Below are positions 13,377 to 51,115 of a stretch of 64,000 nt of DNA, piece after piece; position 1 is the first letter of the stretch; each line of letters opens with the position of its first letter. The DNA is from an uncultured Actinomycetota bacterium (GTDB lineage Bacteria; Actinomycetota; Actinomycetes; Mycobacteriales; Jatrophihabitantaceae): the NCBI GenBank assembly GCA_963839995.1, contig CAWIXH010000011.1, positions 6,152 through 70,151 of the forward strand. Reading direction: 5' to 3'. The notes beneath the pieces were generated by a model that worked only from the letters and a program-made list of their open reading frames with translations, had not been told where the DNA came from and ran no database searches. The position numbers and the translations under genes are program-made.

Positions 13377-13472
13377 CCAGAGCGTCGGTTGCTCGCCTGG
13401 GACTTCTTCCCTGATTTTCTGCGCCCATGGTGATGGTGCCGCCATGTCCGTCCGGACCGGCGGTTCACCGGA

Positions 13473-16409: not shown

Positions 16410-16422
16410 AACCCTCGGGAAT

Positions 16423-16544
16423 TGCATCAGATGCATGATCCGAATTCGGCACTCCGGCAGTTGGTCGCCTGAAACACGTCTCGCGCCTGCTGGATATTCG
16501 GGCTTCGGGAGTGTCGGCTTGATCGTTTGATCCCGTCTGATGCA
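16423..16544. repeat. Left-end inverted TGCATCAGA / TCTGATGCA sites (candidate recombinase-binding sites)
   Basis: ttgcatcagatgcatgatc lies at 16422-16440 and gatcccgtctgatgcaggat at 16529-16548. Both blocks are conserved in the diverged sister copy, whereas the spacer between them is not. Confidence 0.5.
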
Positions 16545-17690
16545 GGATATGCCCACCAACTGGAGCTGGGGGTCGCGTTGCGGCGGGTGGGTTTGGCGGG
16601 CGCGGCGAGCGCCGAGCTGGTCGACGGGGTTCGGCAGCTGCGGCCGGAGGATGCGATGGTCGAGGCGATGTTGCGGGGCTGGCAGGCGCAGCAGGTAGCG
16701 CGTGGCCTGCGCGCGGAGACCGTCGGTTACCGGCAGCGGCTGGTGCGCCGGTTCATGGCCTTCACCAACGAGTACCCGTGGCAGTGGCGGCCGGGGCACG
16801 TGGACGAGTGGACGTTGATGTTGACCGCGGAGCGGCATCTGGCGGCGTCGACGATCCGTAACTACCAGACCGAGCTGCGGTTGTTCAGCGAGTACGTGTG
16901 CGACGGACGGTATGGCTGGGCGGCCGCGTGCGAGACGGAGTTCGGGCCGGGGGTGCATCCGGTACCGATCTGCCACGAGTGGAACACGATCACGCACCTG
17001 AACGAGTACGAGGGCGACCCGGAGGCCCGGCCGTTCACCCGGGCCGAACTGCAACGCTTTCTGGACTACGCCGATGAGCAGGTCGACCGGGCGGCGCAGG
17101 CCAGACGTAAGGGCGCGTTGGCGGCCTACCGGGACGCCACGCTGTTCAAGGTGGTCTACGGGTGGGGACTGCGGCGCACCGAGACCTCGAAGCTGGATCT
17201 GGCCGACTGGGGCCGCAACCCGGCTGCGCCGGAGTTCGGCCGGTTCGGGATGCTGCACGTCCGCTACGGCAAGGCGGTGCGCGGCCAGCCACCCCGGCGG
17301 CGCAACGTGCCCTCGGTGTTCGGCTGGGCAGTGGAGGCGGTGAGCGATTACGTCGAGAACATCAGGCCCCGTTTCGGGGCGGTAGATCATCCGGCGTTGT
17401 GGGTCACCGAACGCGGTGGCCGGATCAAACCCGCAGAGATCAACGCCCGGTTCGTTGCCTACCGTGATGCGCTCGGGCTGCCCCGCGAGCTGACGCCCCA
17501 TTCGCTCAGGCACTCGTTCGTGACCCACCTTACGGAGAACGGGGCCGACCGCCGGTTCATCCAGGAGGCCGTCGGACATCGCTGTGACACGTCCACGGCG
17601 ATCTATACCCACGTGTCCGGGGACTTCATGAACACCGCGCTGCGCAAGGCACTCACCCCGGCCTTCGAGCCAGATGCCCAGGTTCGGTAA
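16527..17690 (+). CDS. Tyrosine integrase of the element (387 codons as listed; true start uncertain)
   Basis: RRTETSKLDL (Arg), HSLRHSFVTHL (HxxR) and VGHRCDTSTAIYTH (His..Tyr). Confidence 0.85.
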   Translation: MIPSDAGYAHQLELGVALRRVGLAGAASAELVDGVRQLRPEDAMVEAMLRGWQAQQVARGLRAETVGYRQRLVRRFMAFTNEYPWQWRPGHVDEWTLMLTAERHLAASTIRNYQTELRLFSEYVCDGRYGWAAACETEFGPGVHPVPICHEWNTITHLNEYEGDPEARPFTRAELQRFLDYADEQVDRAAQARRKGALAAYRDATLFKVVYGWGLRRTETSKLDLADWGRNPAAPEFGRFGMLHVRYGKAVRGQPPRRRNVPSVFGWAVEAVSDYVENIRPRFGAVDHPALWVTERGGRIKPAEINARFVAYRDALGLPRELTPHSLRHSFVTHLTENGADRRFIQEAVGHRCDTSTAIYTHVSGDFMNTALRKALTPAFEPDAQVR

Positions 17691-17699
17691 GGAGATTCG

Positions 17700-18026
17700 A
17701 TGACACGCAAACTGGATTACCGGTGGAACCTGCGGCAGGTAATGGCCACCCAGGGCATGTTCGCCACCACCGACCTGATCGACCCGCTCGCCGCTCGCGG
17801 GATCCGGCTGTCCTCCAGCCAGGTCTACCGGCTGGTCGTCGAGCGGCCGGAGCGGCTGAGCTTGAAGATCCTCATGGCGTTGCTGGACATCATGGACTGC
17901 TCGATGGACGAGCTGATCGAACCAGTCGCCGCTGGCTCGCCGGCCCGCAAGCGCCGTGCGGCCGGCGGCTCGGAGACCGGGATCGGGACGCTGCGCCCGA
18001 AGCCGGCGCGCATCACCCGCAGCTGA
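17700..18026 (+). CDS. Small Cro/C1-type HTH protein of the element
   Basis: MTRKLDYRWNLRQVMATQGMFATTDLIDPLAARGIRLSSSQVYRLVVERPERLSLKILMALLDIMDCSMDELIE. Confidence 0.75.
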   Translation: MTRKLDYRWNLRQVMATQGMFATTDLIDPLAARGIRLSSSQVYRLVVERPERLSLKILMALLDIMDCSMDELIEPVAAGSPARKRRAAGGSETGIGTLRPKPARITRS

Positions 18027-18029
18027 TCG

Positions 18030-20477
18030 ATGCCGACCAGCGTGATGGTGCCCGAGGTACTCGCCGACCCGATCGGTGTGGTCGTCGACATGGTCGCCGG
18101 CGCCGAGCCCGCGCTGGATCGCGCCGTCATCGAGCAGGCGGCCACCGAGGTCGCCGGCGGTCGGGCGAAGCGCCGCCGGCTCGCTCAGGCGCTGCTGGAG
18201 CGGCCCGCCGTGCTCACCGACGGCCGCTCGCCCGCCCCACGCGTTGTCGGTGACCTGCTGGTGAACCTGCGGACCGCGGGCGCGATGAGCATCGCGGCGC
18301 CGGTCTGCGCGGGCTGCGGCAAGCAGCTTCGTACGCTGCAGCGACGCGGAACCGACTGGTACTGCGCGGTTTGCAGCCCCCGGGCGACCGGGTGCGCTGC
18401 CTGTGGCCAGAACCGGATCGTGGTCACCCTCGACCGCGAGGGCCGGCCCCGCTGTTCGCGCTGCCCCGATGCCGATGGCCGGGATCCGTTGCTCACCCTG
18501 ATCACGGTGATCACGACCCTGGAACCGTCGCTGCCAGTCGAGGACATCACCACCGCTATCGGGCGCGTGTTCTCCAGGCCCAGCTATCTGCAGCGCCTGG
18601 CCTGGGCCATCGAGGACCGACCTGAGCTGCTCACCGGCCAAAGCGCGCAGGCACCGATGCACGGCGTGCTGCGGCTCATCGACGAACTTCGCGAGGCCGG
18701 CGCGCAAGCCATCATCCGACCGGCCTGCCCGCAGTGTCAGCGGATCGTACGACTGCACCGGCGCATCAACGGTCAATGGCACTGCCGCAACTGCCTGGCC
18801 AAGTCCCGCGCCCAGCCCTGCTCCCGCTGCGGTGTCATCCGCGAGGCGGCCGCCCGGGACGAGCATGGCCGGCCGCTGTGTCCCAACTGCCTGGTCGCCG
18901 AGCCCGCCAACCAGGAAACCTGTGTCGGATGCGGGCGACGTCGCCGGGTCCACACCCGCACTCCGGGCGGGCCGTCGTGTCAGGCATGCCGACCGATCAG
19001 CGTGGTGGACTGCTCGATCTGCGGCCGTCACGCGCCGGGCGTGATCTCCACCGCGACCGGGCAACCGTGGTGCTACGCCTGCAGCAAACGCCGGGCCCGC
19101 TGCGTCGGCTGCGGGGCCATACGGTTGGTGCGTGGCGGAAAGCTCGCCGCCCCGCTCTGCGCCACCTGCACCCGCCCTGACCCGTCGTTCTGGCACACCT
19201 GCCCCGGCTGCGGCGAACACACCGTGCACCGGCGACGCACCTGCGGCCGCTGCGCGCTTCGACAGCGGCTCGAGCAGCTGCTCGGCTGCGACGAGGACGG
19301 CGGTATCCACCCACGCCTGCGAGCGTTGCACGAACACCTCGCCGGCCACGAACGTCCAGACACCGTGCTGACCTGGCTCAACAAGGACAACGCGTCGGCG
19401 ATCTTGGGTGAACTCGCCACCGGGCAACGTCCACTGACCCACGCCGGGCTCGACGAACTGCCCGATTCCAAGCCGCTGCAGCACCTGCGCAGCGTCCTGG
19501 TTGCCGTCGGTGCACTGCCTGCCCGCGACGAGCAGATGACCCGACTCGAGAACTGGATCACGGCCACCATCACCGTGCGCGAGGACGCCGATGAACGACA
19601 ACTGCTGCACCGCTACGCCACCTGGCACGTGCTGCGCAGACTCCGGCGGCGGGTGCGCGAGGCCAGCACCACCAACGGGCAGGCCATCGCAGCTCGCCGC
19701 AAGATCACTGCCGCGATCGCCTTGCTCGACTGGCTGGAAACCCAGGACCGAACCCTGGCCACGGCCGGGCAAGGCGACCTCGATACCTGGCTGGCCAGCG
19801 GCACACGCTCGGCTACCGACGCGGGGAACTTCGTCCGCTGGGCTCGCAAGCAGAAACTCACCCGACTGGAGTTCGCCGCCACCCGATGGCACGGGCCGAC
19901 CGGCGTGATCGACACCGAGACCCGCTGGTCCCAGGCCCGCCGGCTCCTGCACGACGACACCCTCCAGCCCGAGGGCCGCGTCGCCGGGTTGCTCGTGCTC
20001 CTCTACGCGCAAACCGCGGCAGCGATCAGCCGGCTCACCCTCGACCACGTCCAGACCAGCAACAGCGAGACCCGCCTCCGACTCGGACGCGAACCCGTCA
20101 CCCTGCCCGAACCAGTCGACGCCCTGGTCCGGGAACTGGTCAACACTCGTCGCGGTCACGCTGTCCTCGGCGACCAAGGAACCTCACGGTGGCTGTTCCC
20201 CGGCGGCCGCCCCGGACACCCCATCAGCGCCGCCCGCCTCGCCGAACGACTCCGCGAACTCGGCATCCAGGCCGGGCCATCCCGCTCGGCCGCACTGTTC
20301 CAACTCGCCACCGACCTGCCCGCCGCCATGCTCGCCCGCATGCTCGGCATCCACATAGCCGTCGCCGCCACCTGGCAACGCGCCGCCGCCGGTGACTGGA
20401 CCAACTACGCCGCCGAGATCAGCCGACGACCAGCGTCCGCCCCGGCCGTCGAGCTGGTCGCCGATGATCAACAGTGA
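18030..20477 (+). CDS. 815-aa protein: eight CxxC..CxxC zinc-ribbon-like modules plus a C-terminal integrase-like domain
   Basis: CAGCGK..CAVC, CAACGQ..CSRC, CPQCQR..CRNC, CSRCGV..CPNC, CVGCGR..CQAC, CSICGR..CYAC, CVGCGA..CATC, CPGCGE..CGRC. The C-terminus reads ...AISRLTLDHV...PSRSAALFQLATDLPAAMLARMLGIHIAVAATW...WTNYAAE. Confidence 0.8.
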   Translation: MPTSVMVPEVLADPIGVVVDMVAGAEPALDRAVIEQAATEVAGGRAKRRRLAQALLERPAVLTDGRSPAPRVVGDLLVNLRTAGAMSIAAPVCAGCGKQLRTLQRRGTDWYCAVCSPRATGCAACGQNRIVVTLDREGRPRCSRCPDADGRDPLLTLITVITTLEPSLPVEDITTAIGRVFSRPSYLQRLAWAIEDRPELLTGQSAQAPMHGVLRLIDELREAGAQAIIRPACPQCQRIVRLHRRINGQWHCRNCLAKSRAQPCSRCGVIREAAARDEHGRPLCPNCLVAEPANQETCVGCGRRRRVHTRTPGGPSCQACRPISVVDCSICGRHAPGVISTATGQPWCYACSKRRARCVGCGAIRLVRGGKLAAPLCATCTRPDPSFWHTCPGCGEHTVHRRRTCGRCALRQRLEQLLGCDEDGGIHPRLRALHEHLAGHERPDTVLTWLNKDNASAILGELATGQRPLTHAGLDELPDSKPLQHLRSVLVAVGALPARDEQMTRLENWITATITVREDADERQLLHRYATWHVLRRLRRRVREASTTNGQAIAARRKITAAIALLDWLETQDRTLATAGQGDLDTWLASGTRSATDAGNFVRWARKQKLTRLEFAATRWHGPTGVIDTETRWSQARRLLHDDTLQPEGRVAGLLVLLYAQTAAAISRLTLDHVQTSNSETRLRLGREPVTLPEPVDALVRELVNTRRGHAVLGDQGTSRWLFPGGRPGHPISAARLAERLRELGIQAGPSRSAALFQLATDLPAAMLARMLGIHIAVAATWQRAAAGDWTNYAAEISRRPASAPAVELVADDQQ

Positions 20478-20515
20478 AGGTATTCAGACAGTTGGAAAAC
20501 CTGACTCCGCCAGAG

Positions 20516-20641
20516 AACGCCGACACCGAGATGAAACGCCATGCCCTCGAAAAGGCAAACAGCACCGGCCCGCAACCCCCTCCGGCCCCGTTGTGGCACA
20601 ACCGCGAGGACATCATCCAGCGCTTGTGCGGACTCAAGTAG
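20516..20641 (+). pseudogene. ritC: RitC 3' remainder (41 codons plus stop)
   Basis: NADTEMKRHALEKANSTGPQPPPAPLWHNREDIIQRLCGLK* follows directly on ...TTLIYA in the same codon phase. Confidence 0.8.
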
Positions 20642-20650
20642 TGACACCGG

Positions 20651-20756
20651 CTTATTCCGACAGGCGCCAGCCACGCGAGCCCGTCATCCCAGCCCAGCAG
20701 GCCCATCACACGCGCGAAGGAGCCGACATCGGAATAACCCGGGAATCGGAGTAATA
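20651..20756. repeat. RIT right terminal inverted repeat (106 bp)
   Basis: It is the reverse complement of 13271-13376, with 3 mismatches. Confidence 0.85.
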
Positions 20757-20786
20757 CCAGTTATTCCGAGATCGGAATAACTGGTA
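20755..20786. repeat. 14-bp-stem palindrome at the outer right edge of the RIT element
   Basis: taccagttattccg agat cggaataactggta. It holds two more TTATTCCGA-type 9-mers and has no counterpart at the left end. Confidence 0.85.
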
Positions 20787-22888: not shown

Positions 22889-24145
22889 TCATCTGGCGGC
22901 CGGGTTCACCCAGGCCCAGTGCGCGAAGTACTGCGGCCGCTCTCGGGCCGCGCGACTCATCGCCTGCATGGACTTCTTCCAAGCGCGGAGCCGCTTGTAC
23001 TTGTTCATGGTCCACCGCAGCAGGTAGGTGTTGATGCGGCGGAGCAAGGGATACAGCGCTGACCGGTAGAAGGCGCCGTAATACGCCATCCATCCCCGCA
23101 CGATCGGGTTGATCACCCGGGCGAGATCCTCACCGGTGCTGCCGGTGCGGCGGTGCAGCCGCCAGGATCGCACCCGCGCGCTGATCTTCTTCAGGGCATC
23201 GTTGCTGATGGCCGGGAGGAACGACACGAACTTCGCACCGTCCTTCCGCCGGGCCGAGCGTGGCCGGAAGGTGAACCCCAAGAACGTGAACGACGTGTGC
23301 TCGAACTCGCCACGCCGGTTGCTGTCCTTGCAGTAGACGATCCGGGTCTTGGCCGGGTGCAGCCGCAGCCCAACCTCGTCCATCCGCTCATGCAGCGCGG
23401 CCAAGACCTTCTCGGCCTGCCACCGAGTAGCGCAGTGCAGGACCGCGTCGTCGGCGTACCGCTCGAACTCGACCATCGGAAACTCCCGAGACAGCCAGGT
23501 ATCGAACGCGTAGTGCATGAACAGATTCGCCAGCACGGGCGAAACCGCTGAACCCTGATGGGTTCCCCGGTCGCGCGCCTGCAACGTCCCGTCGGGCAGC
23601 TGTAACGGCGCAGCCAGCCACCGCGTCACGTACAGCATCACCCAGCGGGCATCGGTGTGCGCCTGCACGGCCTTGATCACCAGGTCCCACCGGACGCTGT
23701 CGAAGAACTTCTGGATGTCCAAATCGATCACCCAGTTGCTCGTCCAGCAGCGTTTCCGGCAGACCCCGACCGCGTCCAGCGCGGAACGCCCAGGCCGGTA
23801 GCCGTAGGAGTCAGGATGGAACACCGGTTCCACCCTGGCCTCCAGATGCGCGGCTACCACGGTCTGCGCGACCCGATCCGCGACGGTAGGCACCCCTAAG
23901 ATTCGGGTGCCCGCGCCGTGCGGCTTGGGTACCTCCACCGCTCGCACCGGGGGCGGGAAGTACGTCCCCGACGACATCCGATTCCAGATCTTGTACAGGT
24001 TGTTCTTCAGATCCGTCTCGAACTCCGCCAGCGACTGCCCGTCCACTCCCGGTGCGCCCTGATTCCCTTTCACCTTGAGCCAGGCGCCCCACACCTCAAC
24101 CTTCGAGATGCGAAACGGCTTGCCGGATGACTTCAACTCGTCCAT
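22889..24145 (-). CDS. Group II intron reverse transcriptase/maturase (no endonuclease domain seen)
   Basis: GGGAGGAG RBS, then ATG at 24145. RT motifs: GAPGVDG, RILGVPTVADRVAQ, YGYRPGRSA, QGSAVSPVLANLFMHYAFD, YADDAV. Maturase motif: INPIVRGWMAYYG. Confidence 0.9.
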   Translation of the reverse strand: MDELKSSGKPFRISKVEVWGAWLKVKGNQGAPGVDGQSLAEFETDLKNNLYKIWNRMSSGTYFPPPVRAVEVPKPHGAGTRILGVPTVADRVAQTVVAAHLEARVEPVFHPDSYGYRPGRSALDAVGVCRKRCWTSNWVIDLDIQKFFDSVRWDLVIKAVQAHTDARWVMLYVTRWLAAPLQLPDGTLQARDRGTHQGSAVSPVLANLFMHYAFDTWLSREFPMVEFERYADDAVLHCATRWQAEKVLAALHERMDEVGLRLHPAKTRIVYCKDSNRRGEFEHTSFTFLGFTFRPRSARRKDGAKFVSFLPAISNDALKKISARVRSWRLHRRTGSTGEDLARVINPIVRGWMAYYGAFYRSALYPLLRRINTYLLRWTMNKYKRLRAWKKSMQAMSRAARERPQYFAHWAWVNPAAR

Positions 24146-25280
24146 CGGGCTCCTCCCAGAACCTCTGGTTGACCAAACGAACACAGCCACGGACAACCCG
24201 GCGCCTTCGCTCCACCCCCGTTACAGGGGCTTCACCACTACTACGCGCCGGTCCGCCAGCATGTCCCGCGCCGGTACTCACGTCCCGGCCAGCCAAGATC
24301 AATCCCTGTCTGGCCGGGCGCTCCCTGTCGCCATGCCGCTGACGCACGGCAGTGTCGGGACACGCCTTCTCACGTTCCACACGAGAGCAGCAGACCGGGC
24401 TCACGCCGCCTCCACACCGGACACCGCCAGGCCAGTAAACGGGCACCCGCCTGGCTCATCCCGGGATACACACCAAACCCCGGTTTCGATGTCGTCTGAA
24501 GAGTTTCGATGCTTCAACAACGGTCGTCTTCCCGGCCCCCACCTGACACCTCTCGGGCGCCTTCTCCTCATCGCTCACCACGACGGTCTTCAGCCAACGC
24601 AGCATGAGGCGGTTTGAAGCCTCCCCCCGCAGGGCGGCTCCGAAGGGCCATACCTTCATCTCTCGTGCAGCACCGCATCAAGAAACTCGGCTACCTACAC
24701 GGCAAGCCCCTCTCTGCGTTCGTGACACACGGCATGGCTCATTCCCTCCAACCTGGCGTGTTGTGGCGTGTGGTGCGTGGAGATCTGCCATCGGGCCCGA
24801 ACAGGGTCGCCCTTCACGGCCACAGCGCGGGCGCCACGAGCGCTCAGAGCCGCTGCCCGGCCTGCAGAATCCGACGACGCGAGGTTCCCCACGACCGCAG
24901 ACGGTTGACTCGACCATCAGAAACCCCCAGTTTCCGCGCGGCCGCCAGATCTCACCCGTCATGGAGACCCGCGCACACACACCTGATACCGGTCGAGGCT
25001 GTCGATTCGTTTCCGCACCCGGGTCGGCCAGGCAGGGTTGCTGCCCATTCGTCAACCGCCTGGTCCACGCGCCTGCCGACTCGTTGCGGCCTTCGAAGCG
25101 AGCGCCAGTCGCCGGCCGTGGCGTCGTCGCGGCCAGGTTTGCCGAGCCGGTCACCTGGCCGGCGCGATCGAGCAGGTCGCCCGGTTTGGTTGCCGAGCTC
25201 CTATTGCAGACCGCGGAGGTGACCATGATCCTGGGCCGGTCACGTTCAGACGTGGCAGCGTTTCGGCCGCGGCACCGTTG

Positions 25281-27584: not shown

Positions 27585-27752
27585 TCAGGCTTGCTGGGGC
27601 AGCGAGCGACGGCCGAGCCGCCGGCGCAGTTCGGGGTTCTCGCCGTGGGCGGCCTCCAGCGCCTGGTTGAGGCTGCGGATCTCGTCGCGGTGGCGGCGTT
27701 TGAGCTCGGCGAGTTGGGCGGTGAGGGTGCGCGTCGGGGTTACCGCGCATCA
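27585..27752 (-). pseudogene. Possible remnant of the small coiled-coil third gene of a Tn554-like trio
   Basis: TLTAQLAELKRRHRDEIRSLNQALEAAHGENPELRRRLGRRS follows the TnpB-like stop. The ATG overlapping that stop is in another frame. This call is weak. Confidence 0.25.
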
Positions 27753-28236
27753 GTCGTGCTCCTGCTTGTCGGCGAGGGCGTCGGTGCGAGCCTCGACCCC
27801 GGCGCCGCGGATCGCCCGCGCGCTGCCGTCGGCGAGGCGGGTGTGTTCGAGGGTGAGGATGACGCGGCCGAGTGCATCGTGTTCCTGGCGTCGTCCGGCC
27901 AGCCACACGTTGTCCTCGCTCATCTCCCGCCCGGTGCGGGCAAGGAACACAGCGTTACGTTCGGTGATCAGGTTTGCGGTGCGGTCGAGCTGGGTGCGCA
28001 GCTCGGGAAGGAAGCTGGCGTCGGTGGCGAACTTGTCACAGGTCAGGCACGAGTTGCCCTTCTGACAGACCTGGCGGGGTGGCAGCAGACACCAGCCGTT
28101 GGGCAGGATCCGGTCAGTGCGCCGGTCCAGTTCGAGCATGTCGTAGAGGTCTCGTGGGTCGATGTCCAGGTCGCGGGCGTCAGCGGTGATCTTGCGATAG
28201 CGCAGGAACTCCGCCTCGGCGGTGGACTGCAGCGTC
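27750..28236 (-). pseudogene. Tn554 TnpB-like tyrosine recombinase, 3' part (post-tyrosine extension with a Cys motif)
   Basis: TLQSTAEAEFLRYRKITADARDL...ILPNGWCLLPPRQVCQKGNSCLTCDKFATDASFLPELRTQLDRTANLI. It starts directly at the right end of element copy 2. Confidence 0.55.
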
Positions 28237-28274
28237 CTCTGGCGGAGTCAGGTTTTCCAACTGTCTGAATACCT

Positions 28275-30722
28275 TCACTGTTGATCATCGGCGACCAGCT
28301 CGACGGCCGGGGCGGACGCTGGTCGTCGGCTGATCTCGGCGGCGTAGTTGGTCCAGTCACCGGCGGCGGCGCGTTGCCAGGTGGCGGCGACGGCTATGTG
28401 GATGCCGAGCATGCGGGCGAGCATGGCGGCGGGCAGGTCGGTGGCGAGTTGGAACAGTGCGGCCGAGCGGGATGGCCCGGCCTGGATGCCGAGTTCGCGG
28501 AGTCGTTCGGCGAGGCGGGCGGCGCTGATGGGGTGTCCGGGGCGGCCGCCGGGGAACAGCCACCGTGAGGTTCCTTGGTCGCCGAGGACAGCGTGACCGC
28601 GACGAGTGTTGACCAGTTCCCGGACCAGGGCGTCGACTGGTTCGGGCAGGGTGACGGGTTCGCGTCCGAGTCGGAGGCGGGTCTCGCTGTTGCTGGTCTG
28701 GACGTGGTCGAGGGTGAGCCGGCTGATCGCTGCCGCGGTTTGCGCGTAGAGGAGCACGAGCAACCCGGCGACGCGGCCCTCGGGCTGGAGGGTGTCGTCG
28801 TGCAGGAGCCGGCGGGCCTGGGACCAGCGGGTCTCGGTGTCGATCACGCCGGTCGGCCCGTGCCATCGGGTGGCGGCGAACTCCAGTCGGGTGAGTTTCT
28901 GCTTGCGAGCCCAGCGGACGAAGTTCCCCGCGTCGGTAGCCGAGCGTGTGCCGCTGGCCAGCCAGGTATCGAGGTCGCCTTGCCCGGCCGTGGCCAGGGT
29001 TCGGTCCTGGGTTTCCAGCCAGTCGAGCAAGGCGATCGCGGCAGTGATCTTGCGGCGAGCTGCGATGGCCTGCCCGTTGGTGGTGCTGGCCTCGCGCACC
29101 CGCCGCCGGAGTCTGCGCAGCACGTGCCAGGTGGCGTAGCGGTGCAGCAGTTGTCGTTCATCGGCGTCCTCGCGCACGGTGATGGTGGCCGTGATCCAGT
29201 TCTCGAGTCGGGTCATCTGCTCGTCGCGGGCAGGCAGTGCACCGACGGCAACCAGGACGCTGCGCAGGTGCTGCAGCGGCTTGGAATCGGGCAGTTCGTC
29301 GAGCCCGGCGTGGGTCAGTGGACGTTGCCCGGTGGCGAGTTCACCCAAGATCGCCGACGCGTTGTCCTTGTTGAGCCAGGTCAGCACGGTGTCTGGACGT
29401 TCGTGGCCGGCGAGGTGTTCGTGCAACGCTCGCAGGCGTGGGTGGATACCGCCGTCCTCGTCGCAGCCGAGCAGCTGCTCGAGCCGCTGTCGAAGCGCGC
29501 AGCGGCCGCAGGTGCGTCGCCGGTGCACGGTGTGTTCGCCGCAGCCGGGGCAGGTGTGCCAGAACGACGGGTCAGGGCGGGTGCAGGTGGCGCAGAGCGG
29601 GGCGGCGAGCTTTCCGCCACGCACCAACCGTATGGCCCCGCAGCCGACGCAGCGGGCCCGGCGTTTGCTGCAGGCGTAGCACCACGGTTGCCCGGTCGCG
29701 GTGGAGATCACGCCCGGCGCGTGACGGCCGCAGATCGAGCAGTCCACCACGCTGATCGGTCGGCATGCCTGACACGACGGCCCGCCCGGAGTGCGGGTGT
29801 GGACCCGGCGACGTCGCCCGCATCCGACACAGGTTTCCTGGTTGGCGGGCTCGGCGACCAGGCAGTTGGGACACAGCGGCCGGCCATGCTCGTCCCGGGC
29901 GGCCGCCTCGCGGATGACACCGCAGCGGGAGCAGGGCTGGGCGCGGGACTTGGCCAGGCAGTTGCGGCAGTGCCATTGACCGTTGATGCGCCGGTGCAGT
30001 CGTACGATCCGCTGACACTGCGGGCAGGCCGGTCGGATGATGGCTTGCGCGCCGGCCTCGCGAAGTTCGTCGATGAGCCGCAGCACGCCGTGCATCGGTG
30101 CCTGCGCGCTTTGGCCGGTGAGCAGCTCAGGTCGGTCCTCGATGGCCCAGGCCAGGCGCTGCAGATAGCTGGGCCTGGAGAACACGCGCCCGATAGCGGT
30201 GGTGATGTCCTCGACTGGCAGCGACGGTTCCAGGGTCGTGATCACCGTGATCAGGGTGAGCAACGGATCCCGGCCATCGGCATCGGGGCAGCGCGAACAG
30301 CGGGGCCGGCCCTCGCGGTCGAGGGTGACCACGATCCGGTTCTGGCCACAGGCAGCGCACCCGGTCGCCCGGGGGCTGCAAACCGCGCAGTACCAGTCGG
30401 TTCCGCGTCGCTGCAGCGTACGAAGCTGCTTGCCGCAGCCCGCGCAGACCGGCGCCGCGATGCTCATCGCGCCCGCGGTCCGCAGGTTCACCAGCAGGTC
30501 ACCGACAACGCGTGGGGCGGGCGAGCGGCCGTCGGTGAGCACGGCGGGCCGCTCCAGCAGCGCCTGAGCGAGCCGGCGGCGCTTCGCCCGACCGCCGGCG
30601 ACCTCGGTGGCCGCCTGCTCGATGACGGCGCGATCCAGCGCGGGCTCGGCGCCGGCGACCATGTCGACGACCACACCGATCGGGTCGGCGAGTACCTCGG
30701 GCACCATCACGCTGGTCGGCAT
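28275..30722 (-). CDS. 815-aa zinc-ribbon-rich integrase-like protein (copy 2)
   Basis: The translation is identical to 18030-20477. Confidence 0.8.
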   Translation of the reverse strand: MPTSVMVPEVLADPIGVVVDMVAGAEPALDRAVIEQAATEVAGGRAKRRRLAQALLERPAVLTDGRSPAPRVVGDLLVNLRTAGAMSIAAPVCAGCGKQLRTLQRRGTDWYCAVCSPRATGCAACGQNRIVVTLDREGRPRCSRCPDADGRDPLLTLITVITTLEPSLPVEDITTAIGRVFSRPSYLQRLAWAIEDRPELLTGQSAQAPMHGVLRLIDELREAGAQAIIRPACPQCQRIVRLHRRINGQWHCRNCLAKSRAQPCSRCGVIREAAARDEHGRPLCPNCLVAEPANQETCVGCGRRRRVHTRTPGGPSCQACRPISVVDCSICGRHAPGVISTATGQPWCYACSKRRARCVGCGAIRLVRGGKLAAPLCATCTRPDPSFWHTCPGCGEHTVHRRRTCGRCALRQRLEQLLGCDEDGGIHPRLRALHEHLAGHERPDTVLTWLNKDNASAILGELATGQRPLTHAGLDELPDSKPLQHLRSVLVAVGALPARDEQMTRLENWITATITVREDADERQLLHRYATWHVLRRLRRRVREASTTNGQAIAARRKITAAIALLDWLETQDRTLATAGQGDLDTWLASGTRSATDAGNFVRWARKQKLTRLEFAATRWHGPTGVIDTETRWSQARRLLHDDTLQPEGRVAGLLVLLYAQTAAAISRLTLDHVQTSNSETRLRLGREPVTLPEPVDALVRELVNTRRGHAVLGDQGTSRWLFPGGRPGHPISAARLAERLRELGIQAGPSRSAALFQLATDLPAAMLARMLGIHIAVAATWQRAAAGDWTNYAAEISRRPASAPAVELVADDQQ

Positions 30723-30725
30723 CGA

Positions 30726-31052
30726 TCAGCTGCGGGTGATGCGCGCCGGCTTCGGGCGCAGCGTCCCGATCCCGGTCTCCGAGCCGCCGGCCGCACGGCG
30801 CTTGCGGGCCGGCGAGCCAGCGGCGACTGGTTCGATCAGCTCGTCCATCGAGCAGTCCATGATGTCCAGCAACGCCATGAGGATCTTCAAGCTCAGCCGC
30901 TCCGGCCGCTCGACGACCAGCCGGTAGACCTGGCTGGAGGACAGCCGGATCCCGCGAGCGGCGAGCGGGTCGATCAGGTCGGTGGTGGCGAACATGCCCT
31001 GGGTGGCCATTACCTGCCGCAGGTTCCACCGGTAATCCAGTTTGCGTGTCAT
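30726..31052 (-). CDS. Small HTH protein (copy 2)
   Basis: The translation is identical to 17700-18026. Confidence 0.75.
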   Translation of the reverse strand: MTRKLDYRWNLRQVMATQGMFATTDLIDPLAARGIRLSSSQVYRLVVERPERLSLKILMALLDIMDCSMDELIEPVAAGSPARKRRAAGGSETGIGTLRPKPARITRS

Positions 31053-31061
31053 CGAATCTCC

Positions 31062-32225
31062 TTACCGAACCTGGGCATCTGGCTCGAAGGCCGGGGTGAG
31101 TGCCTTGCGCAGCGCGGTGTTCATGAAGTCCCCGGACACGTGGGTATAGATCGCCGTGGACGTGTCACAGCGATGTCCGACGGCCTCCTGGATGAACCGG
31201 CGGTCGGCCCCGTTCTCCGTAAGGTGGGTCACGAACGAGTGCCTGAGCGAATGGGGCGTCAGCTCGCGGGGCAGCCCGAGCGCATCACGGTAGGCAACGA
31301 ACCGGGCGTTGATCTCTGCGGGTTTGATCCGGCCACCGCGTTCGGTGACCCACAACGCCGGATGATCTACCGCCCCGAAACGGGGCCTGATGTTCTCGAC
31401 GTAATCGCTCACCGCCTCCACTGCCCAGCCGAACACCGAGGGCACGTTGCGCCGCCGGGGTGGCTGGCCGCGCACCGCCTTGCCGTAGCGGACGTGCAGC
31501 ATCCCGAACCGGCCGAACTCCGGCGCAGCCGGGTTGCGGCCCCAGTCGGCCAGATCCAGCTTCGAGGTCTCGGTGCGCCGCAGTCCCCACCCGTAGACCA
31601 CCTTGAACAGCGTGGCGTCCCGGTAGGCCGCCAACGCGCCCTTACGTCTGGCCTGCGCCGCCCGGTCGACCTGCTCATCGGCGTAGTCCAGAAAGCGTTG
31701 CAGTTCGGCCCGGGTGAACGGCCGGGCCTCCGGGTCGCCCTCGTACTCGTTCAGGTGCGTGATCGTGTTCCACTCGTGGCAGATCGGTACCGGATGCACC
31801 CCCGGCCCGAACTCCGTCTCGCACGCGGCCGCCCAGCCATACCGTCCGTCGCACACGTACTCGCTGAACAACCGCAGCTCGGTCTGGTAGTTACGGATCG
31901 TCGACGCCGCCAGATGCCGCTCCGCGGTCAACATCAACGTCCACTCGTCCACGTGCCCCGGCCGCCACTGCCACGGGTACTCGTTGGTGAAGGCCATGAA
32001 CCGGCGCACCAGCCGCTGCCGGTAACCGACGGTCTCCGCGCGCAGGCCACGCGCTACCTGCTGCGCCTGCCAGCCCCGCAACATCGCCTCGACCATCGCA
32101 TCCTCCGGCCGCAGCTGCCGAACCCCGTCGACCAGCTCGGCGCTCGCCGCGCCCGCCAAACCCACCCGCCGCAACGCGACCCCCAGCTCCAGTTGGTGGG
32201 CATATCCTGCATCAGACGGGATCAA
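31062..32225 (-). CDS. Tyrosine integrase (copy 2)
   Basis: The translation is identical to 16527-17690. Confidence 0.85.
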   Translation of the reverse strand: MIPSDAGYAHQLELGVALRRVGLAGAASAELVDGVRQLRPEDAMVEAMLRGWQAQQVARGLRAETVGYRQRLVRRFMAFTNEYPWQWRPGHVDEWTLMLTAERHLAASTIRNYQTELRLFSEYVCDGRYGWAAACETEFGPGVHPVPICHEWNTITHLNEYEGDPEARPFTRAELQRFLDYADEQVDRAAQARRKGALAAYRDATLFKVVYGWGLRRTETSKLDLADWGRNPAAPEFGRFGMLHVRYGKAVRGQPPRRRNVPSVFGWAVEAVSDYVENIRPRFGAVDHPALWVTERGGRIKPAEINARFVAYRDALGLPRELTPHSLRHSFVTHLTENGADRRFIQEAVGHRCDTSTAIYTHVSGDFMNTALRKALTPAFEPDAQVR

Positions 32226-32342
32226 ACGATCAAGCCGACACTCCCGAAGCCCGAATATCCAGCAGGCGCGAGACGTGTTTCAGGCGACCAACTGCCGGAG
32301 TGCCGAATTCGGATCATGCATCTGATGCAATTCCCGAGGGTT

Positions 32343-33386
32343 GGTGTAGATCGCCGTCGAGGTGTCGCAGCGATGCCCGACCTGTTCTTGGATGAATCGG
32401 CGGTCCGCGCCGTCCTCGGTCAGGTGCGTGACATAGGAGTGGCGCAGCGAGTGCGGCGACAAATCACGCGGCAGGCCGAGTGCGTCGCGGTAGGCGACGA
32501 ACCGGGCGTTGATCTCCGCGGGCTTGACCCGCCCACCTCGCTCAGTGATCCACAACGCCGGATGATCCACGGCACCGAACCGAGGCCGGACGTTGTCGAC
32601 GTAGTCGGCGACCGCCTCCACCGCCCAGCCCATCACCGAAGCGACGTTGCGCCGACGGGGCGGTTGGCCGCGCACCGCCTTGCCGTAGCGCACGTGCAGC
32701 ATCCCGAACCGGCCGAACTCCGCCGCTGCCGGGTTGCGGCCCCAATCGGCCAGGTCCAGCTTCGCGGTCTCGGTGCGCCGCAGCCCCCAGCCATAGATCA
32801 CCTTGAACAACGTCGCGTCCCGGTAGGCGGCCAGCGCACCCTTGCGCTTGGCCCGTGCCGCTCGCTCGACCTGCTCGTCGGCGTAGTCCAGGAACCGTTG
32901 CAGCTCCTCGCGCGAGAGCGGCCGGGCCTCCGGGCTGCCCTCGTACTCGTTCAGGTGCGCGATGGTGTTCCACTCATGACAGATCGGCACCGGGAACTGC
33001 CCGAACGCCTCCTCACACGCGCTTGCCCAGCCATAGCGGGCATCGGTGAGGTACTCACTGAACAGACGAAGATCGGTCTGGTAGCCGCGGATCGTCGCCG
33101 GCGCCAGATGCCGTTCGGCGGTCAACGTCAACGTCCACTCGTCCACGTGACCAGGACCCCACTGCCAGGGAAACTCGTTGGTAAACACGACGAACGCTCG
33201 CACCAACCGCTCCCGGGGATCGATAGTCGACGCGCGCAGCCCACGGGCAGTCTGCTGCGCCCGCCAGCCGCGCAGCATCGCCTCCACCATCGCCTCTTCC
33301 GGCCGCAGTTGGACGACGCCGTCCATCAACTCAGCGGTCGCCGCACCCGCCAAACCCACCCGCTGCAACCTGCCTCCCATCGCCAA
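32343..33386 (-). pseudogene. Sister-element integrase, interrupted after ...VGHRCDTSTAIYT by copy 2
   Basis: MAMGGRLQRVGLAGAATAELMDGVVQLRPEEAMVEAMLRGW...HSLRHSYVTHLTEDGADRRFIQEQVGHRCDTSTAIYT, then the element tail NPRELHQMHDPNSALRQLVA* (stop at 32280). Confidence 0.85.
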
Positions 33387-33536
33387 GTGACGGGCGTATC
33401 CTGCATCAGACGGGATCAGCCGATCAACGCGACGCGCCGCATCCCTTCCCCGATCGTTGATCCAGGACTTCGTTCAACCCGCCAACTCTCGGAAAGACCA
33501 ATTCGGATCATGCATCTGATGCAATTCCCGAGGGTT
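32343..33536 (-). mobile_element. Diverged sister element: left end plus the 5' 348 codons of its integrase only
   Basis: It has the same 37-nt tip (aaccctcgggaattgcatcagatgcatgatccgaatt) and the same 22-nt internal site, with a diverged spacer. Its integrase is clearly homologous but not identical to the 387-aa Int. Confidence 0.8.
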
Positions 33537-33899
33537 TGCGTAGACCATGCTCATCGTCGGCGTCAGGTGCCCGAGGTAGCGCTGCAGGACCTGAATCGGC
33601 ACGCCGTTATTGAGCAGGTTGGTGGCGACCGTGTGCCGGAAACGGTGGGTGCGGTTGAAGTCGACGAGCGTGCCGGTGCCGTCGCGCACTTCCAGCCGGG
33701 CGGCCAGCTTGCTCAGCGCCTGCCGCAGGCTGTTACCGGAGTAGGGCCTGTCGCCGTTGCGGTTCATCAACGGCGCGAGGAACAGGTACTTCGGCATGAC
33801 GCCCGGAGCGCCGTGTTCGGCAAAGTACCGCGCCGCCCACTGCTGCTGTTCGCGGATGATCGCGACGATCTCTGCGTGCACGAGGATCGAGTTCGGCGA
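33537..33899 (-). pseudogene. Tn554 TnpB-like tyrosine recombinase, internal fragment ending ...LGHLTPTMSMVYA
   Basis: SPNSILVHAEIVAIIREQQQWAARYF...THRFRHTVATNLLNNGVPIQVLQRYLGHLTPTMSMVYA, then the sister-element tail NPRELHQMHDPNWSFRELAG* (stop at 33474). The N-terminal half of the gene is absent. Confidence 0.6.
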
Positions 33900-33995: not shown

Positions 33996-34947
33996 TCATT
34001 GCGCCTGACCCAATCGGCTGGTGACCTGCAGGAACCACGACTCGAGTGAAGTGTTGACGGGCTGGAGTCGGTAGACGGAGATCCCGCCGCTGACCAGCGC
34101 GCGCGATCGTCGCGATGACATCGCGCGACGTGTCGGCAGGCAGGCTGATAGCCAAACCACCGCCATCGATGGTGACGGTCACGAGCAAGTTCGCAGCGTC
34201 GACGAGGGCGCTCGCCCGGTCGGGATCGGAGCACTCGACCTGCAACCTGACGGCCGTCCCGGCCAGCAGCTCGGTGATCGGCCCCTGCCGGATCACGTTG
34301 CCGCGGTCCACGATCGCGACCGCGTCGCAGGTGCGCTCGACCTCGTCCAGCAGGTGCGAGGACAACACGACCGTGCGTCCCTCGGCGACCAGCGAGCGGA
34401 TCATGTCGCGCATCTCCTGCATACCGGCGGGATCGAGGCCGTTCATCGGCTCATCCAAGATCAACAACTGCGGGTCGCCGATGAGGCACGCTGCGACACC
34501 CAGCCGCTGCCGCATGCCCATCGAGTACGTCGACACCCGGTCCTCGGCCCGGTGCAAGATCCCCACGCGCTCCAAGGACGCGTCGATGCGGCCACGAGCC
34601 GCGGGCTCTCGTGCCGCCGCGAGCACCTGCAGATTCTCCCGGCCGGTCAGGTGACCGTGGAAGCGCGGCTCGTCGACGATGGCCGCCACCCGAGCCAGCG
34701 CCAGATCGCGATGCGCGGGAACGGCGTAGCCGAGCAGCGACATCGACCCCGCGTCCGCGTGCGTGAGCCCGAGCAACACGCGGATCAACGTCGTCTTACC
34801 CGCGCCGTTCGGGCCGAGATAACCGAACGCACAGCCGCGTGGGATACGCAGGTCCACGTTGTTGACCGCGACGTTGTCGCCGAACCGCTTCGTCAACCCG
34901 TGTGCCTCGACCGCCCACCGACCGTCGGAGGCCACCACCGCCGTCAT
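33996..34947 (-). pseudogene. ABC-2-type ABC transporter ATP-binding protein, frameshift in a GC-repeat near 34096-34106
   Basis: Walker A GPNGAGKTT, signature YSMGMRQRLG, Walker B LLILDEP. The C-terminus ALVSGGISVYRLQPVNTSLESWFLQVTSRLGQAQ* is in the next frame. Confidence 0.75.
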
Positions 34948-35337
34948 CACGAGCACCGAGCCGGTGCGCGTGCCGCCATCCTCCACCCCTTCCGCCCGCC
35001 CGCTCCACTTGATCGTGCACCGAATCACGCGGAGCGGCATCAGGTACGCCCCTGACACGACCCGGAATCGTCACCCGCTCACTCGGCGCGTTCTCAGCGA
35101 CCCGCTCGAAGATTCGGTCCACCGCCCATAACGACAACACCGGGCCGGCCGGACTCTCATCTACAGCGCGCGATTCGGCGCTCGCGCAGACCTGCGCGGA
35201 CACCGTGGGTGATCGCGCCTGCCGTGTCGTTTCATGCCGGCTGTACCGGACCCGTCGATGGCTGCGGCCGCAGCGCCATTGATCACGTCAGCGGGCCTGT
35301 GCCGGTCCGTCGCCGCTCGAAGGGCGCCGGCGTGAGC

Positions 35338-44491: not shown

Positions 44492-45919
44492 ATGTGCGCA
44501 GCAATGATCACCGATCTGGGGCCGGAGTCGTCGATGCCGGGCCGGGCGACACCACCGGCGCCGCCCCCGTGGGCGTGCGAGCAGACTCGCGCCCGGACGG
44601 CCGCCGAGCTGGCCGACGAGCTGGTGGACGAGGCGTGGCTGGACCAGCTGATCGCCTCCGCCGGGGCGGGCGAGTTGCGGTTGACCGGCGAGGGCGGGTT
44701 CCTGCCGGAGTTGATCAAGCGGGTCCTGGAGCGGGGACTGGAGGTCGAACGCACTGATCACCTGGGCTATGAGAAGGGAGACCCGGCCGGGCGCGGCGCG
44801 CCGAACTCGCGCAACGGCACCACCCCGAAGACGGTGCTCACCGAGGCCGGGCCGATCGGGCTGGAGGTGCCCCGCGACCGGCTCGGCACGTTCACTCCGC
44901 GGCTGGTGCCCAAGGGTGAGCGGCGACTCGCCGGCGGCCTCGACGACATGATCATCAGCTTGTATGCGGGCGGGATGACGGTCCGCGACATCGAACACCA
45001 CCTGGTGCGCACGTTGGGCGTCGAGGTGTCCCGGGAGACCATCTCCAAGATCACCGACGCGGTGCTGGAAGAGGTCAAGGCCTGGCAGGCCCGGCCGCTG
45101 GATGCGATCTACCCGATCATCTACGTCGACGCGCTGGTGGTGAAGGTCCGCGACGGCGCGCACGTGATGAACAAGGCCGCGCACATCGTCGTCGGCGTGG
45201 ACACCGACGGAATCAAGCACGTGCTGGGCATCTGGGTGCAGAACGCCGAGGGCGCGAGGTTCTGGCTGCAGGTGTTCACCGAGCTGCGCAACCGCGGGGT
45301 GCGCGACGTGCTGATCGCCTGCTGCGACGGGCTTGAAGGCCTGCCCGAGGCGATCGAGACCGTCTGGCCCAAGACGGTGACCCAGACCTGCGTGGTCCAC
45401 CTCATTCGGGCGGCCATGCGGTATGTGTCCTACGGCGACCGCAAGGCCGTCGCCGCCGCCCTCAAACCGATCTACACCGCGGCCACCGAAGACGCCGCCC
45501 TCGAGGCCCTCGCGGCGTTCACCGAAGGCGAGCTGGGCCGCCGCTACCCCGGCGCGGTCGGCGTCTGGGAACGCGCCTGGGAACGGTTCACCCCGTTCTT
45601 GGCCTTCCCACCGCAAGTAAGGAAGATCATCTACACGACCAATGCCATCGAAAGCCTGAACTACCAACTCCGCAAGATCATCAAGAACCGAGGGCACTTC
45701 CCCTCCGACGAGGCGGTGGTCAAGCTGCTCTGGCTGGCCATCTGCGACATCGAGGACAAGCGCGCCCGCGCCCGGGAGAAGGAACGCCGCCGCAAGCCCG
45801 TCAACCACCGCACCGCACCCGGCCGGCTCGTCGAGGGCCAACTCGTCACCGGCTGGAAACAGGCCCTCAACGCCCTCGACATCGCCTACCCCGGCCGCCT
45901 GCCGCAAGGAGTGAACTGA
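44492..45919 (+). CDS. IS256-family (mutator-type) transposase
   Basis: ...[24 protein letters not shown]...[10 protein letters not shown]...[19 protein letters not shown]...[16 protein letters not shown]...[17 protein letters not shown]...QTCVVHLIR...[25 protein letters not shown]. Confidence 0.9.
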   Translation: MCAAMITDLGPESSMPGRATPPAPPPWACEQTRARTAAELADELVDEAWLDQLIASAGAGELRLTGEGGFLPELIKRVLERGLEVERTDHLGYEKGDPAGRGAPNSRNGTTPKTVLTEAGPIGLEVPRDRLGTFTPRLVPKGERRLAGGLDDMIISLYAGGMTVRDIEHHLVRTLGVEVSRETISKITDAVLEEVKAWQARPLDAIYPIIYVDALVVKVRDGAHVMNKAAHIVVGVDTDGIKHVLGIWVQNAEGARFWLQVFTELRNRGVRDVLIACCDGLEGLPEAIETVWPKTVTQTCVVHLIRAAMRYVSYGDRKAVAAALKPIYTAATEDAALEALAAFTEGELGRRYPGAVGVWERAWERFTPFLAFPPQVRKIIYTTNAIESLNYQLRKIIKNRGHFPSDEAVVKLLWLAICDIEDKRARAREKERRRKPVNHRTAPGRLVEGQLVTGWKQALNALDIAYPGRLPQGVN

Positions 45920-49693: not shown

Positions 49694-51115
49694 TCAGTTC
49701 ACTCCTTCGGGCAGTCGGCCGGGGTAGGCGATGGCGAGGGCGTTGAGGGCCTGTTTCCAGCCGGTGACGAGTTGGCCTTCGACGAGCCGGCCGGGTGCGG
49801 TGCGCTTGGTGGCCGGCTTGCCGCGGTCGTTCTCGCGGGCGCGAGCTCGTTTGTCCTCGATGTCGCAGATCGCCAGCCAGAGCAGCTTGGTCACCGCGTC
49901 GTCGTTGGGGAAGTGCCCCCGGTTCTTGATGATCTTGCGTAGTTGGTAGTTCAGGCTTTCGATCGCGTTCGTCGTGTAAATGATCTTCCTTACTTCCGGT
50001 GGGAAGGCCAGGAACGGGGTGAACCGCTCCCAGGCGCGTTCCCAGACGCCGACCGCGCCGGGGTAGCGGCGGCCCAGCTCGCTGTCGCTGAAGGCGGCCA
50101 ACGCGCTCAGCGCGGCGTCTTCGGTGGCGGCGGTGTAGACGACGCGCAACGCGGCGGCGACGGCCTTGCGGTCGGCGTAGGACACGTAACGCAACGCCGC
50201 TCGAATGAGGTGCACCACGCAGGTCTGGGTGATGGTGCGCGGCCAGACCGTCTCGATCGCCTCGGGCAGGCCTTCCAGGCCGTCGCAGCAGGCGATGAGC
50301 ACGTCACGCACGCCGCGGTTGCGCAGCTCGGTGAGCACCTGCAGCCAGAACTTCGCGCCCTCGGTGGTCTGCACCCAGATGCCCAGCACGTGCTTGATGC
50401 CGTCGGTGTCCACCCCGATGACGATGTGCGCGGCCTTGTTGGTCACGTGCGCGCCGTCGCGGACTTTGACCACCAGCGCGTCGATGTAGACGATCGGGTA
50501 GACCGGGTCCAGCGGCCGGGTCTGCCAGGCCTTGACCTCCTCGAGCACCGCGTCGGTGATCGAGGAGATGGTCTGCCGGGAGACCTCGACGCCCAGCGTG
50601 CGGGCCAGGTGATGCTCGATGTCGCGCACCGTCATCCCGCCGGCATACAAGCTGATGATCATGTCGTCGAGGCCGCCGGCCAGCCGCCGCTCCCCCTTGG
50701 GCACCAGCCGCGGGGTGAACGTGCCGGCCCGGTCGCGGGGCACGTCCAGGCCGATCGGGCCGGCCTCGGTCAACACCGTCTTCGGGGTGCTGCCGTTGCG
50801 TGAGTTCGGCGCGCCGCGCCCGGCCGGGTCGCCCTTCTCGTAGCCGAGATGATCGGCCCGCTCCACCTCCAGGCCACGCTCGAGGACCCGCTTGATCAGC
50901 TCCGGCAAGAACCCGCCCTCGCCGGTCAGCCGCAACTCACCGGCGCCGGCCGAGGCGATCAGCCGGTCCAGCCACGCCTCGTCGACCAGCTCGTCGGCGA
51001 CCTCGCCCGCCGTGCGCCGGCGGCCCCGCTGGCACGCCCAGGCCGGCATCGTCGAGTCCCCGGCCACCGGGCCCTCGGCATCCGAGTCCAGATCCGTGAT
51101 CAGTGCTGCGCACAT
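49694..51115 (-). CDS. IS256-family transposase (copy B)
   Basis: It is collinear with copy A with scattered substitutions, and is 473 codons long. Confidence 0.9.

Follow-up and report, generated by a model that had tools for sequence, protein, structure and literature searches.

Stacked junctions of a three-gene mobile element at the catalytic-tyrosine motif of tyrosine recombinase genes in an uncultured actinobacterium

A 64,000-nucleotide stretch of contig CAWIXH010000011.1 from an uncultured Actinomycetota bacterium (assembly GCA_963839995.1; the whole stretch is called the window below) contains two copies of a 4,106-bp three-gene mobile element, here named E, and one of them (copy 2) interrupts the integrase gene (int) of a diverged sister element, S. 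The left end of S itself abuts a gene resembling tnpB of Tn554, and the layout at the locus is tnpB-5', the left 1.19 kb of S, E, and tnpB-3'. Together with the junctions of related elements, this locus makes a strong case that E is a transposon driven by tyrosine recombinases and that it and its relatives insert, with a single orientation and no visible duplication, between the first and second codons after the catalytic tyrosine (Tyr+1 and Tyr+2), within box II (G-H...T-T..Y) of other tyrosine recombinase genes; in the window, E would have entered the int of S, the S tip occupies the equivalent position in tnpB, and at least one further event occurred. A wider interpretation, which we favor with noticeably less confidence, sees in the ~4-kb three-gene elements a very abundant family, mainly of Actinomycetota, that acts as a dedicated 'recombinase-gene hunter': it would recognize the DNA for box II of nearly every tyrosine recombinase, insert one codon past the catalytic Tyr codon, and so parasitize other mobile elements, including Tn554-like elements, RIT (recombinase in trio) elements and members of its own family.

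The nested locus

Positions are window coordinates, the nest is read on the minus strand from 33899 downward, and a slash in a sequence marks a junction. The features are as follows.

33537..33899, minus: Tn554-TnpB-like tyrosine recombinase gene, 5'-truncated, 121 codons (Pfam PF00589, homologues)
33387..33536, minus: left tip and spacer of S, 150 nt (tip at 33500-33536 the same as the E tip, spacer 61% identical)
32343..33386, minus: sister int, codons 1-348, ending ...GHRCDTSTAIYT (alignment, Pfam)
28237..32342, minus: element E copy 2, complete, 4,106 bp (0 mismatches to copy 1)
32306-32342, minus: tip of E copy 2
31062-32225, minus: int of E copy 2, 387 aa (Pfam)
30726-31052, minus: HTH_26 gene of E copy 2 (Pfam)
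28275-30722, minus: 815-aa gene of E copy 2 (structure and fold search)
28237, minus: right end of E copy 2, ...CTGACTCCGCCAGAG
27750..28236, minus: 3' part of the TnpB-like gene, (x)TLQSTAEAEFLRYRKI...CLTCDKF...EHD, with its stop at 27750
27585..27750, minus: TnpC-like (DUF6262) remnant (tblastn)
16410..20515, plus: element E copy 1, interrupting the third gene of a RIT-like trio (simple insertion)

The outer junction, between the tnpB-like gene and S, reads ...ATGGTCTACGCA/AACCCTCGGGAATTGCATCAGATGC at 33537/33536, and the inner junction, between the sister int and E copy 2, reads ...GCGATCTACACC/AACCCTCGGGAATTGCATCAGATGC at 32343/32342. The window has exactly three occurrences of the 36-nt tip (16410+, 32342- and 33536-), where 0 are expected from 100 shuffles. 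The original prediction had read a recombinase fragment, a sister element and copy 2 in this order, and its junctions and coordinates proved correct, with the complete copy 2 lying beyond the inner one; copy 2 did strike the sister int at the same motif, at the codon after the catalytic Tyr. The three-deep nest that it described stands as far as the stacked left junctions are concerned. The nest is not complete, S being reduced to a left-end remnant of 1,194 bp that lacks the last ~27 codons of int, the gene for the helix-turn-helix (HTH) protein, the 815-aa gene and the right end. Because the sequence after the right end of E is the 3' part of the tnpB-like gene and not the rest of the sister int (HVSGDF...), the 3' portion of S is absent; this absence, and the return of the TnpB-like gene at 28236, had been overlooked.

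The sister element

Over 33536-32343, the DNA identity of S to the left 1.2 kb of E is 80.3% (959 matches, 235 mismatches and one 6-nt indel), with 100% identity in the first 37 nt, 61% in the spacer and 81.8% in int. The open reading frame at 32280-33386(-) is collinear with the 387-aa Int at 83-84% amino acid identity, with one 2-codon indel, and the 158 differing codons consist of 102 synonymous and 56 nonsynonymous changes. The S int has no stop or frameshift across its 348 codons and is cut one codon after the catalytic Tyr; its product still matches PF00589 at 5e-17, with everything past Tyr+1 absent. Full-length Ints from other genomes (protein P0022 and the Ints of loci L008, L012 and L024) are 90-91% identical to that of S.

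These comparisons uphold the earlier description of a collinear integrase with many substitutions, a different left-end spacer and a diverged copy as opposed to a tandem duplication of copy 2. The same description had called S an older or different lineage, of which the second half stands, given the Ints of other genomes, and the first has no support, since int is open and its changes are mostly synonymous. Judged by its sequence, S is a separate living lineage of the family of E, not a duplicate and not visibly older.

The first 37 nt of S are those of the E tip, yet the elements with the closest Ints (L008, L011, L012 and L024) bear another tip variant (...CAGATGGGCGAGCCGAAT), which suggests tip exchange between lineages. 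E and S also share a second conserved block, GATCCCGTCTGATGCAGGATAYGCCC, at 32208-32232 and 33402-33426, which lies at +127 from the tip in 28 loci. Within the block lies TCTGATGC, the tip motif GCATCAGA in inverted form, and the block may serve as a second binding site for a recombinase.

The outer gene

The fragment at 33537-33899(-) matches the Pfam Phage_integrase family (PF00589) with an E-value of 2.7e-12. It reads SPNSILVHAEIV...HRFRH...LGHLTPTMSMVYA, with HRFRH, LGH and VYA motifs, and ends one codon past the catalytic Tyr; the H-x-x-R, H and Y residues of the catalytic domain are thus present, and the region of the box I Arg lies within the deleted 5' part. Intact homologues, up to 86% identical (P0121/P0122), read ...LGHLTPTMSMVYA-[E/Q/K]-TLQSTAEAEFLRYRKI... 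and are followed by a DUF6262 gene. Since the homologues read VYA-[E/Q/K]-TLQSTAEAEF, the two halves in the window are separated by one codon only.

The reconstructed outer protein is 32% identical to TnpB of Tn558 over 214 aa (E-value 9e-28), in an alignment that covers the Cys-rich tail after the Tyr (LPNGxCxLP...C..N.CL.C..F). Tn558 is a Tn554-family transposon of S. arlettae plasmid pSN65, with the order tnpA-tnpB-DUF6262-fexA. On these similarities the label Tn554-TnpB-like, already proposed for the outer gene, is justified, and the intact gene that was to be looked for in relatives exists not only as P0121/P0122 but also on pRB98 and in L088, where the expected tnpA and tnpC (DUF6262) neighbors are present. 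In the window, the first ~450 codons of the gene (its 5' two-thirds) and tnpA are deleted, and homology begins at 33899, adjoining the start of an ABC-permease gene. The TnpC-like gene has an internal deletion that joins MRGNPD out of frame to residues ~90-124; the remnant is 85-89% identical to the DUF6262 proteins of L088 and L082 (tblastn). The Tn554-like host element is thoroughly degraded.

A family-wide target rule

The sample for the family consisted of 80 genomic loci that were fetched and five further contigs with identical E copies. Among the candidates scored, 2,485 proteins belong to the Int family at an E-value ≤1e-20, and none of the top 120 falls below 77% identity; relatives of the 815-aa protein number 1,257, and 252 actinobacterial plasmids carry homologues. 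Of the 75 insertions with enough flank, mainly from Actinomycetota, 71 have the conserved tip in frame with a tyrosine recombinase gene, at its box II. In 64 of the 75 it comes directly after codon Tyr+1, in frame after ...G-H......T-T..Y-X, and in seven, which form a subfamily (L040, L054, L057, L058, L061, L063 and L071), it is exactly 4 nt further and still in box II. The tip of this subfamily is AAGGCTCGGGAATTGCATCTGACG (AAGGCTCGGG...), its site is Tyr-X-X plus 1 nt, and its right end is ...GCCATTA or ...GCCGTTA. The other four tips include two after Tyr-X with a degenerate upstream context and two elsewhere.

The interrupted recombinases are highly diverse, including RIT genes, Tn554-type tnpA-like and tnpB-like genes, phage-type integrases and three-gene relatives; examples are the tnpA-like ...GYK/AVYPEE..HRAFIARRR and the tnpB-like ...VYA/KIADRTV and ...HYA/QTLAETHEAEF. 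The right end, ...CATTCRGACAGTTSSAATATCYGACNYCGCCAGAG/, is conserved as well and is followed by the in-frame codon Tyr+2 of the same gene. With both left and right junctions in frame, insertion is precise and orientation-specific and leaves no visible duplication. The only conserved bases of the target are GGnCAC (-36 to -31), ACCAC (-18 to -14) and TAC/TAT (-6 to -4), and no microhomology, either of the attP/attB kind or with the element ends, was seen around the junction. Nucleotide-precise placement beside a degenerate ~36-bp spaced motif with no visible crossover homology is mechanistically unusual and potentially useful.

Nesting within the family is not confined to the window. In L084, E lies in the Int of a distant Int-HTH-515-aa element (...TTAIYT/E/HVGADAKNRM...) with the rest of the host element intact, and other family members are nested in the same way in distant three-gene hosts in L068 and L049, so that targeting of related three-gene elements is recurrent. 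A truncated host is found only in the window, among the cases seen, and L072 provides a canonical insertion in the tnpB-like subfamily of the window. The nest indicates that the family is not immune to itself, and that self-targeting can yield truncated remnants or, possibly, composite elements; its own integrase gene is a legitimate target, which limits the spread of the family. The idea that a TAT codon for the Tyr protects the element's own int was rejected: TAT occurs in 14 of 62 targets, and the box II DNA of E fits the target consensus about as well as that of S.

In some members (L021, L023, L026-L028, L041, L045-L049, L055 and L072), further genes follow the 815-aa gene ahead of the right end, and tip and right end span about 4.4-12 kb. 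Some 815-aa homologues (P0258, P0265, P0295 and P0352) are fused to nucleotidyltransferase domains (PF01909, PF04229). L004, L007 and L009 are short high-GC contigs binned as Gemmatimonadales, Acidobacteria or Thermoanaerobaculia, and mis-binning seems likelier than a wider host range.

Copies of element E

The two window copies are both 4,106 bp long with zero mismatches. Copy 1 is inserted as ...TTLIYA/E/NADTEMKRHALEKA... in a RIT-like trio (13473-14438, ~14435-15504, and ~15500-16409 plus 20516-20643) that is bounded by 113-nt inverted repeats (13266-13378 and 20649-20761). The copies are inverted repeats 7.7 kb apart, and homologous recombination between them could flip the intervening segment; the flanks of copy 1 still match each other, and no inversion has therefore taken place through copy 1.

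Five more copies were found beyond the window, in one metagenome assembly. Three of them are intact, with 0-2 mismatches to copy 1, and those of L083 and L084 have 0 mismatches to window copy 2; the copies of L086 and L087 carry secondary insertions and were left out of the mismatch comparison. The gene upstream of the extra copies is a recombinase in all four that have a left flank, the left end of L087 running off its contig, and the target gene resumes in frame at all five right junctions. The int of E itself is intact in the copies checked (both window copies and L083-L085). Altogether seven copies are known, and the five complete ones that were compared differ by at most 2 nt; this near-identity argues for recent activity of E with an increase in copy number. 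Several short contigs start or stop exactly at element termini, as a multi-copy repeat predicts. The termini of E have only short imperfect inverted motifs. The secondary insertion in L087 is an IS256-family transposase gene that interrupts the 815-aa gene, and the one in L086 lies between int and the HTH gene.

Proteins of element E

The co-directional genes of E encode, in order, the 387-aa integrase, a 108-aa HTH protein and the 815-aa protein. Int matches PF00589 (Phage_integrase) at 3e-20 together with the SAM-like domain PF02899, and R216/R217, K249, H325, R328, H351 and Y360 are invariant in an alignment of 12 sequences. Both the Int of E and that of S have the R-K-H-R-H/W-Y residues and the SAM-like N-terminal domain of tyrosine recombinases, and that of E is a generic Xer-like recombinase. 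The 108-aa protein is a Cro/C1-type HTH protein (Pfam HTH_26).

The predicted fold of the 815-aa protein is that of a tyrosine recombinase. Its AlphaFold model (pLDDT 75.8) contains helical modules, a Cys4 zinc-ribbon array and a C-terminal two-domain module, and every one of the best 50 PDB matches in a Foldseek search with the model is a tyrosine recombinase, Cre, XerA, lambda Int, XerD and IntI among them, with E-values down to 1e-4 over about 300 aligned columns. Residues H775 and Y793 are invariant. Profile comparison of this protein with Int gave no usable alignment.

Points against the proposed reading, and the history of the nest

Several observations weigh against the reading proposed at the outset. 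The empty sites of L088 and L089 read TAC GCA GA(A/G) ACG CTG CAG and predict CCGCCAGAG/GAGACGCTG at the right junction of copy 2, where the window has CCGCCAGAG/GACGCTG, 2 nt short. Immediately beyond the right end of E, at 28236, the tnpB-like gene continues as G ACG CTG CAG TCC..., with 2 nt of codon Tyr+2 lost (...CCAGAG/GACG in the window, versus the canonical ...CCAGAG/GAGACG), and copy 2 is the only one of the seven E copies with an out-of-frame right flank, the other six being in frame. The deficit may reflect slippage on GAGGAG, an imprecise secondary event or an assembly indel; a frameshift in the neighboring ABC ATPase gene was noted alongside it. A second composite of an S fragment and E is not on record, as judged from a look-up of the chimeric S reading frame with four alternative start codons. 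Searches with the 815-aa protein gave no hit in Pfam, NCBIfam, PHROGs or the PDB sequences, which leaves it without a recombinase signature at the sequence level, and by eye it lacks the canonical Arg-His-Arg, its box I and H-x-x-R positions reading YAQTAAAISRL and RSAALFQLAT. Because these residues are not conserved by eye, it may be a non-catalytic or atypical recombinase partner. Finally, a circle junction joining right end and left tip (...CCGCCAGAG + AACCCTCGGG...) was not found among the loci or in two metagenome scans.

The original prediction implied that S entered tnpB at this site and that E then entered S in place. That order is not established, because at least one further site-specific event is needed, which either removed the rest of S or never included it. 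In one possible history, S would enter tnpB, E would enter S, and the right ends of E and S would then recombine in place. In another, S would enter tnpB and delete itself between the box II site of its own int and its right junction, after which E would enter the resulting hybrid int5'::tnpB3' gene. Alternatively, E could have entered the int of S elsewhere, and the composite of S left end and int5'::E, bounded by the S tip and the right end of E, could have moved into tnpB as a unit. All three routes fit and are indistinguishable on present data, as no second composite is on record to separate them. Under each of them, the junction between S int and E is a canonical insertion of E into an integrase gene of its own family.

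Alternative explanations

In principle, the left end of copy 2 could have been partly duplicated in tandem to give the segment 32343-33536, which then decayed; the segment and the left 1.2 kb of copy 2 are collinear, and their first 37 nt are identical. However, 235 substitutions in 1,194 nt would have had to accumulate next to an element with none in 4,106 nt between copies 1 and 2, and they would have done so with 102 synonymous against 56 nonsynonymous codon differences and no stop in 348 codons. The fragment is also nearer to Ints of other genomes (90-91%) than to that of E (83%), and on its left side it joins a different gene at a canonical Tyr+1 position. A decayed duplication is thus extremely unlikely and was rejected on this divergence pattern. 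An assembly chimera, in which the identical 4.1-kb repeat of E and the shared 37-nt tip served to link two loci so that the 3' part of tnpB is not truly contiguous, is unlikely too, although less so: E is a perfect repeat with at least seven copies, the right junction is 2 nt off, and the ABC ATPase gene nearby is frameshifted. Against it, two independent misjoins would be required, one of them through 37 nt only; the tnpB halves are of the same subfamily and fit to within one codon, the TnpC remnant downstream is consistent with one degraded Tn554-like element, and the other E copies in the assembly have coherent flanks.

The target rule itself might be a matter of survival, if insertion were widespread and only hits in dispensable recombinase genes persisted. 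The recombinase genes of other elements should indeed be dispensable to the host, a point of reasoning alone. Selection, however, cannot give nucleotide-exact placement and a single orientation, and the tips lie exactly after Tyr+1 (64 of 75) or exactly 4 nt further (seven), all co-oriented with the target gene, in recombinases from very different families. We consider survival very improbable, falling between the other two alternatives.

How insertion might proceed

The junctions, the divergence of S, the target rule across the family, the protein folds and the multi-copy state of E are shown by the data. For targeted insertion into box II, we infer the recombination chemistry, a circular intermediate and the protein that reads the target. 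By analogy with tyrosine recombinase transposons, Int would exchange the strands of the joined element ends with those of the box II coding DNA, with the 815-aa recombinase-fold and zinc-ribbon protein and the HTH protein probably aiding complex assembly or target reading. With neither a circle junction nor a donor-derived footprint in the data, the reaction could be a single strand exchange that replication resolves, or a pair of exchanges with biased repair. A coupling-sequence or footprint mechanism of the Tn916 or Tn554 kind was rejected, the termini being invariable among the seven E copies.

Relation to known systems

The closest kinds of element are the multi-recombinase transposons, namely Tn554-related elements, SEs, GInts and RITs (PMC10214605, PMC3414803), and E falls outside each of them. 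Like the Tn554 family (Tn554/Tn558/Tn6674; PMC3414803), E is small, inserts in a site- and orientation-specific manner without target duplication, combines one ordinary-sized and one long protein of tyrosine recombinase fold (predicted in the case of E) with a small third protein, and has no transfer or mobilization module. In contrast, gene order and content differ (Int-HTH_26-815 aa versus TnpA-TnpB-TnpC(DUF6262)): E has no homologues of TnpA, TnpB and TnpC, and its third protein is HTH_26, not DUF6262. The 6-bp donor-derived footprint of Tn554 was not seen, the right end being ...CCGCCAGAG in all seven E copies and the left end AACCC... in all six that are readable, at targets that differ. 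The target of Tn554 is att554, while that of E is the box II coding region of recombinase genes, and Tn554-type tnpA and tnpB genes are themselves among the targets of the family (the window, L016, L020, L029, L030, L065 and L072). The possibility that E is one of the actinobacterial transposons related to Tn554 that Van Houdt et al. described in 2012 (PMC3414803) was rejected. The recombinase pair of Arthrobacter FB24 plasmid 1 matches TnpA and TnpB of Tn558 and not the 815-aa protein, which has no BLAST match to the long recombinase of that pair (Van Houdt et al. 2012, Table 2); FB24-type genes are among the targets of the family.

SEs and GInts resemble E as target-specific, non-mobilizable tyrosine recombinase transposons with several proteins, one of them recombinase-like and without RHRY (Tfp/GinC), as the 815-aa protein may also be. 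They retain the donor copy, and the multi-copy state of E fits retention. Unlike E, they are built on four core genes (IntA-Tfp-IntB-Srap) and are elements of Gammaproteobacteria, and their descriptions, with 13-19-bp inverted repeats, a 6-bp footprint and unrelated targets, set them further apart. RIT elements share with E a compact build of recombinase genes only and are common in the same genomes. However, RITs have three catalytic recombinases and long terminal inverted repeats, where E has one catalytic recombinase, an HTH gene and one protein of predicted recombinase fold; they are hosts of E (copy 1, L083 and L085), not relatives. Integration also splits an integrase gene in the 'suicidal' SSV-type archaeal integrases (PMC7253208). 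There the att site lies in the element's own int, which its own integration splits, whereas the recombining ends of E are the element termini, its own int stays intact, and the recombinase gene of another element is split one codon past the catalytic Tyr.

The full-text literature searched, whose coverage is incomplete, holds no report of recombinase genes being targeted by an element at their catalytic Tyr codon, and a prior description is possible. The Tn5053/Tn402 'res hunters' target the recombination module of other mobile elements, as E does, with a DDE transposase and TniQ. Inteins and homing introns, which like the res hunters resemble E in strategy only, home by means of homing endonucleases into a sequence held constant by an active-site motif. 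Many transposons, integrative elements, phages and plasmids share the target of E, which the host can dispense with and which moves horizontally. If the hunter interpretation is true, the family would be a clear case of bacterial hyperparasitism among mobile elements and would account for many of the integrase annotations that are split or truncated in the genomes and plasmids of actinobacteria.

Neighboring genes in the window

The ABC ATPase gene beside the nest (33996-35058, minus) shifts frame at ~34090, near its 3' end, and its true C-terminus, ...LVSGGISVYRLQPVNTSLESWFLQVTS, lies in another frame, as in a pseudogene or an assembly indel; the permease gene that follows it stops at ~33900, where the tnpB-like fragment truncates it. 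An open reading frame at 22889-24196 (minus), which lies between the E copies and has RVT_1 (reverse transcriptase) and GIIM (group II intron maturase) domains, probably belongs to a group II intron. Two IS256-family (Transposase_mut) genes, at 44492-45919 (plus) and 49694-51115 (minus), are inverted and share ~89% DNA identity, and the pair encloses ~3.7 kb in an arrangement that resembles a composite transposon.

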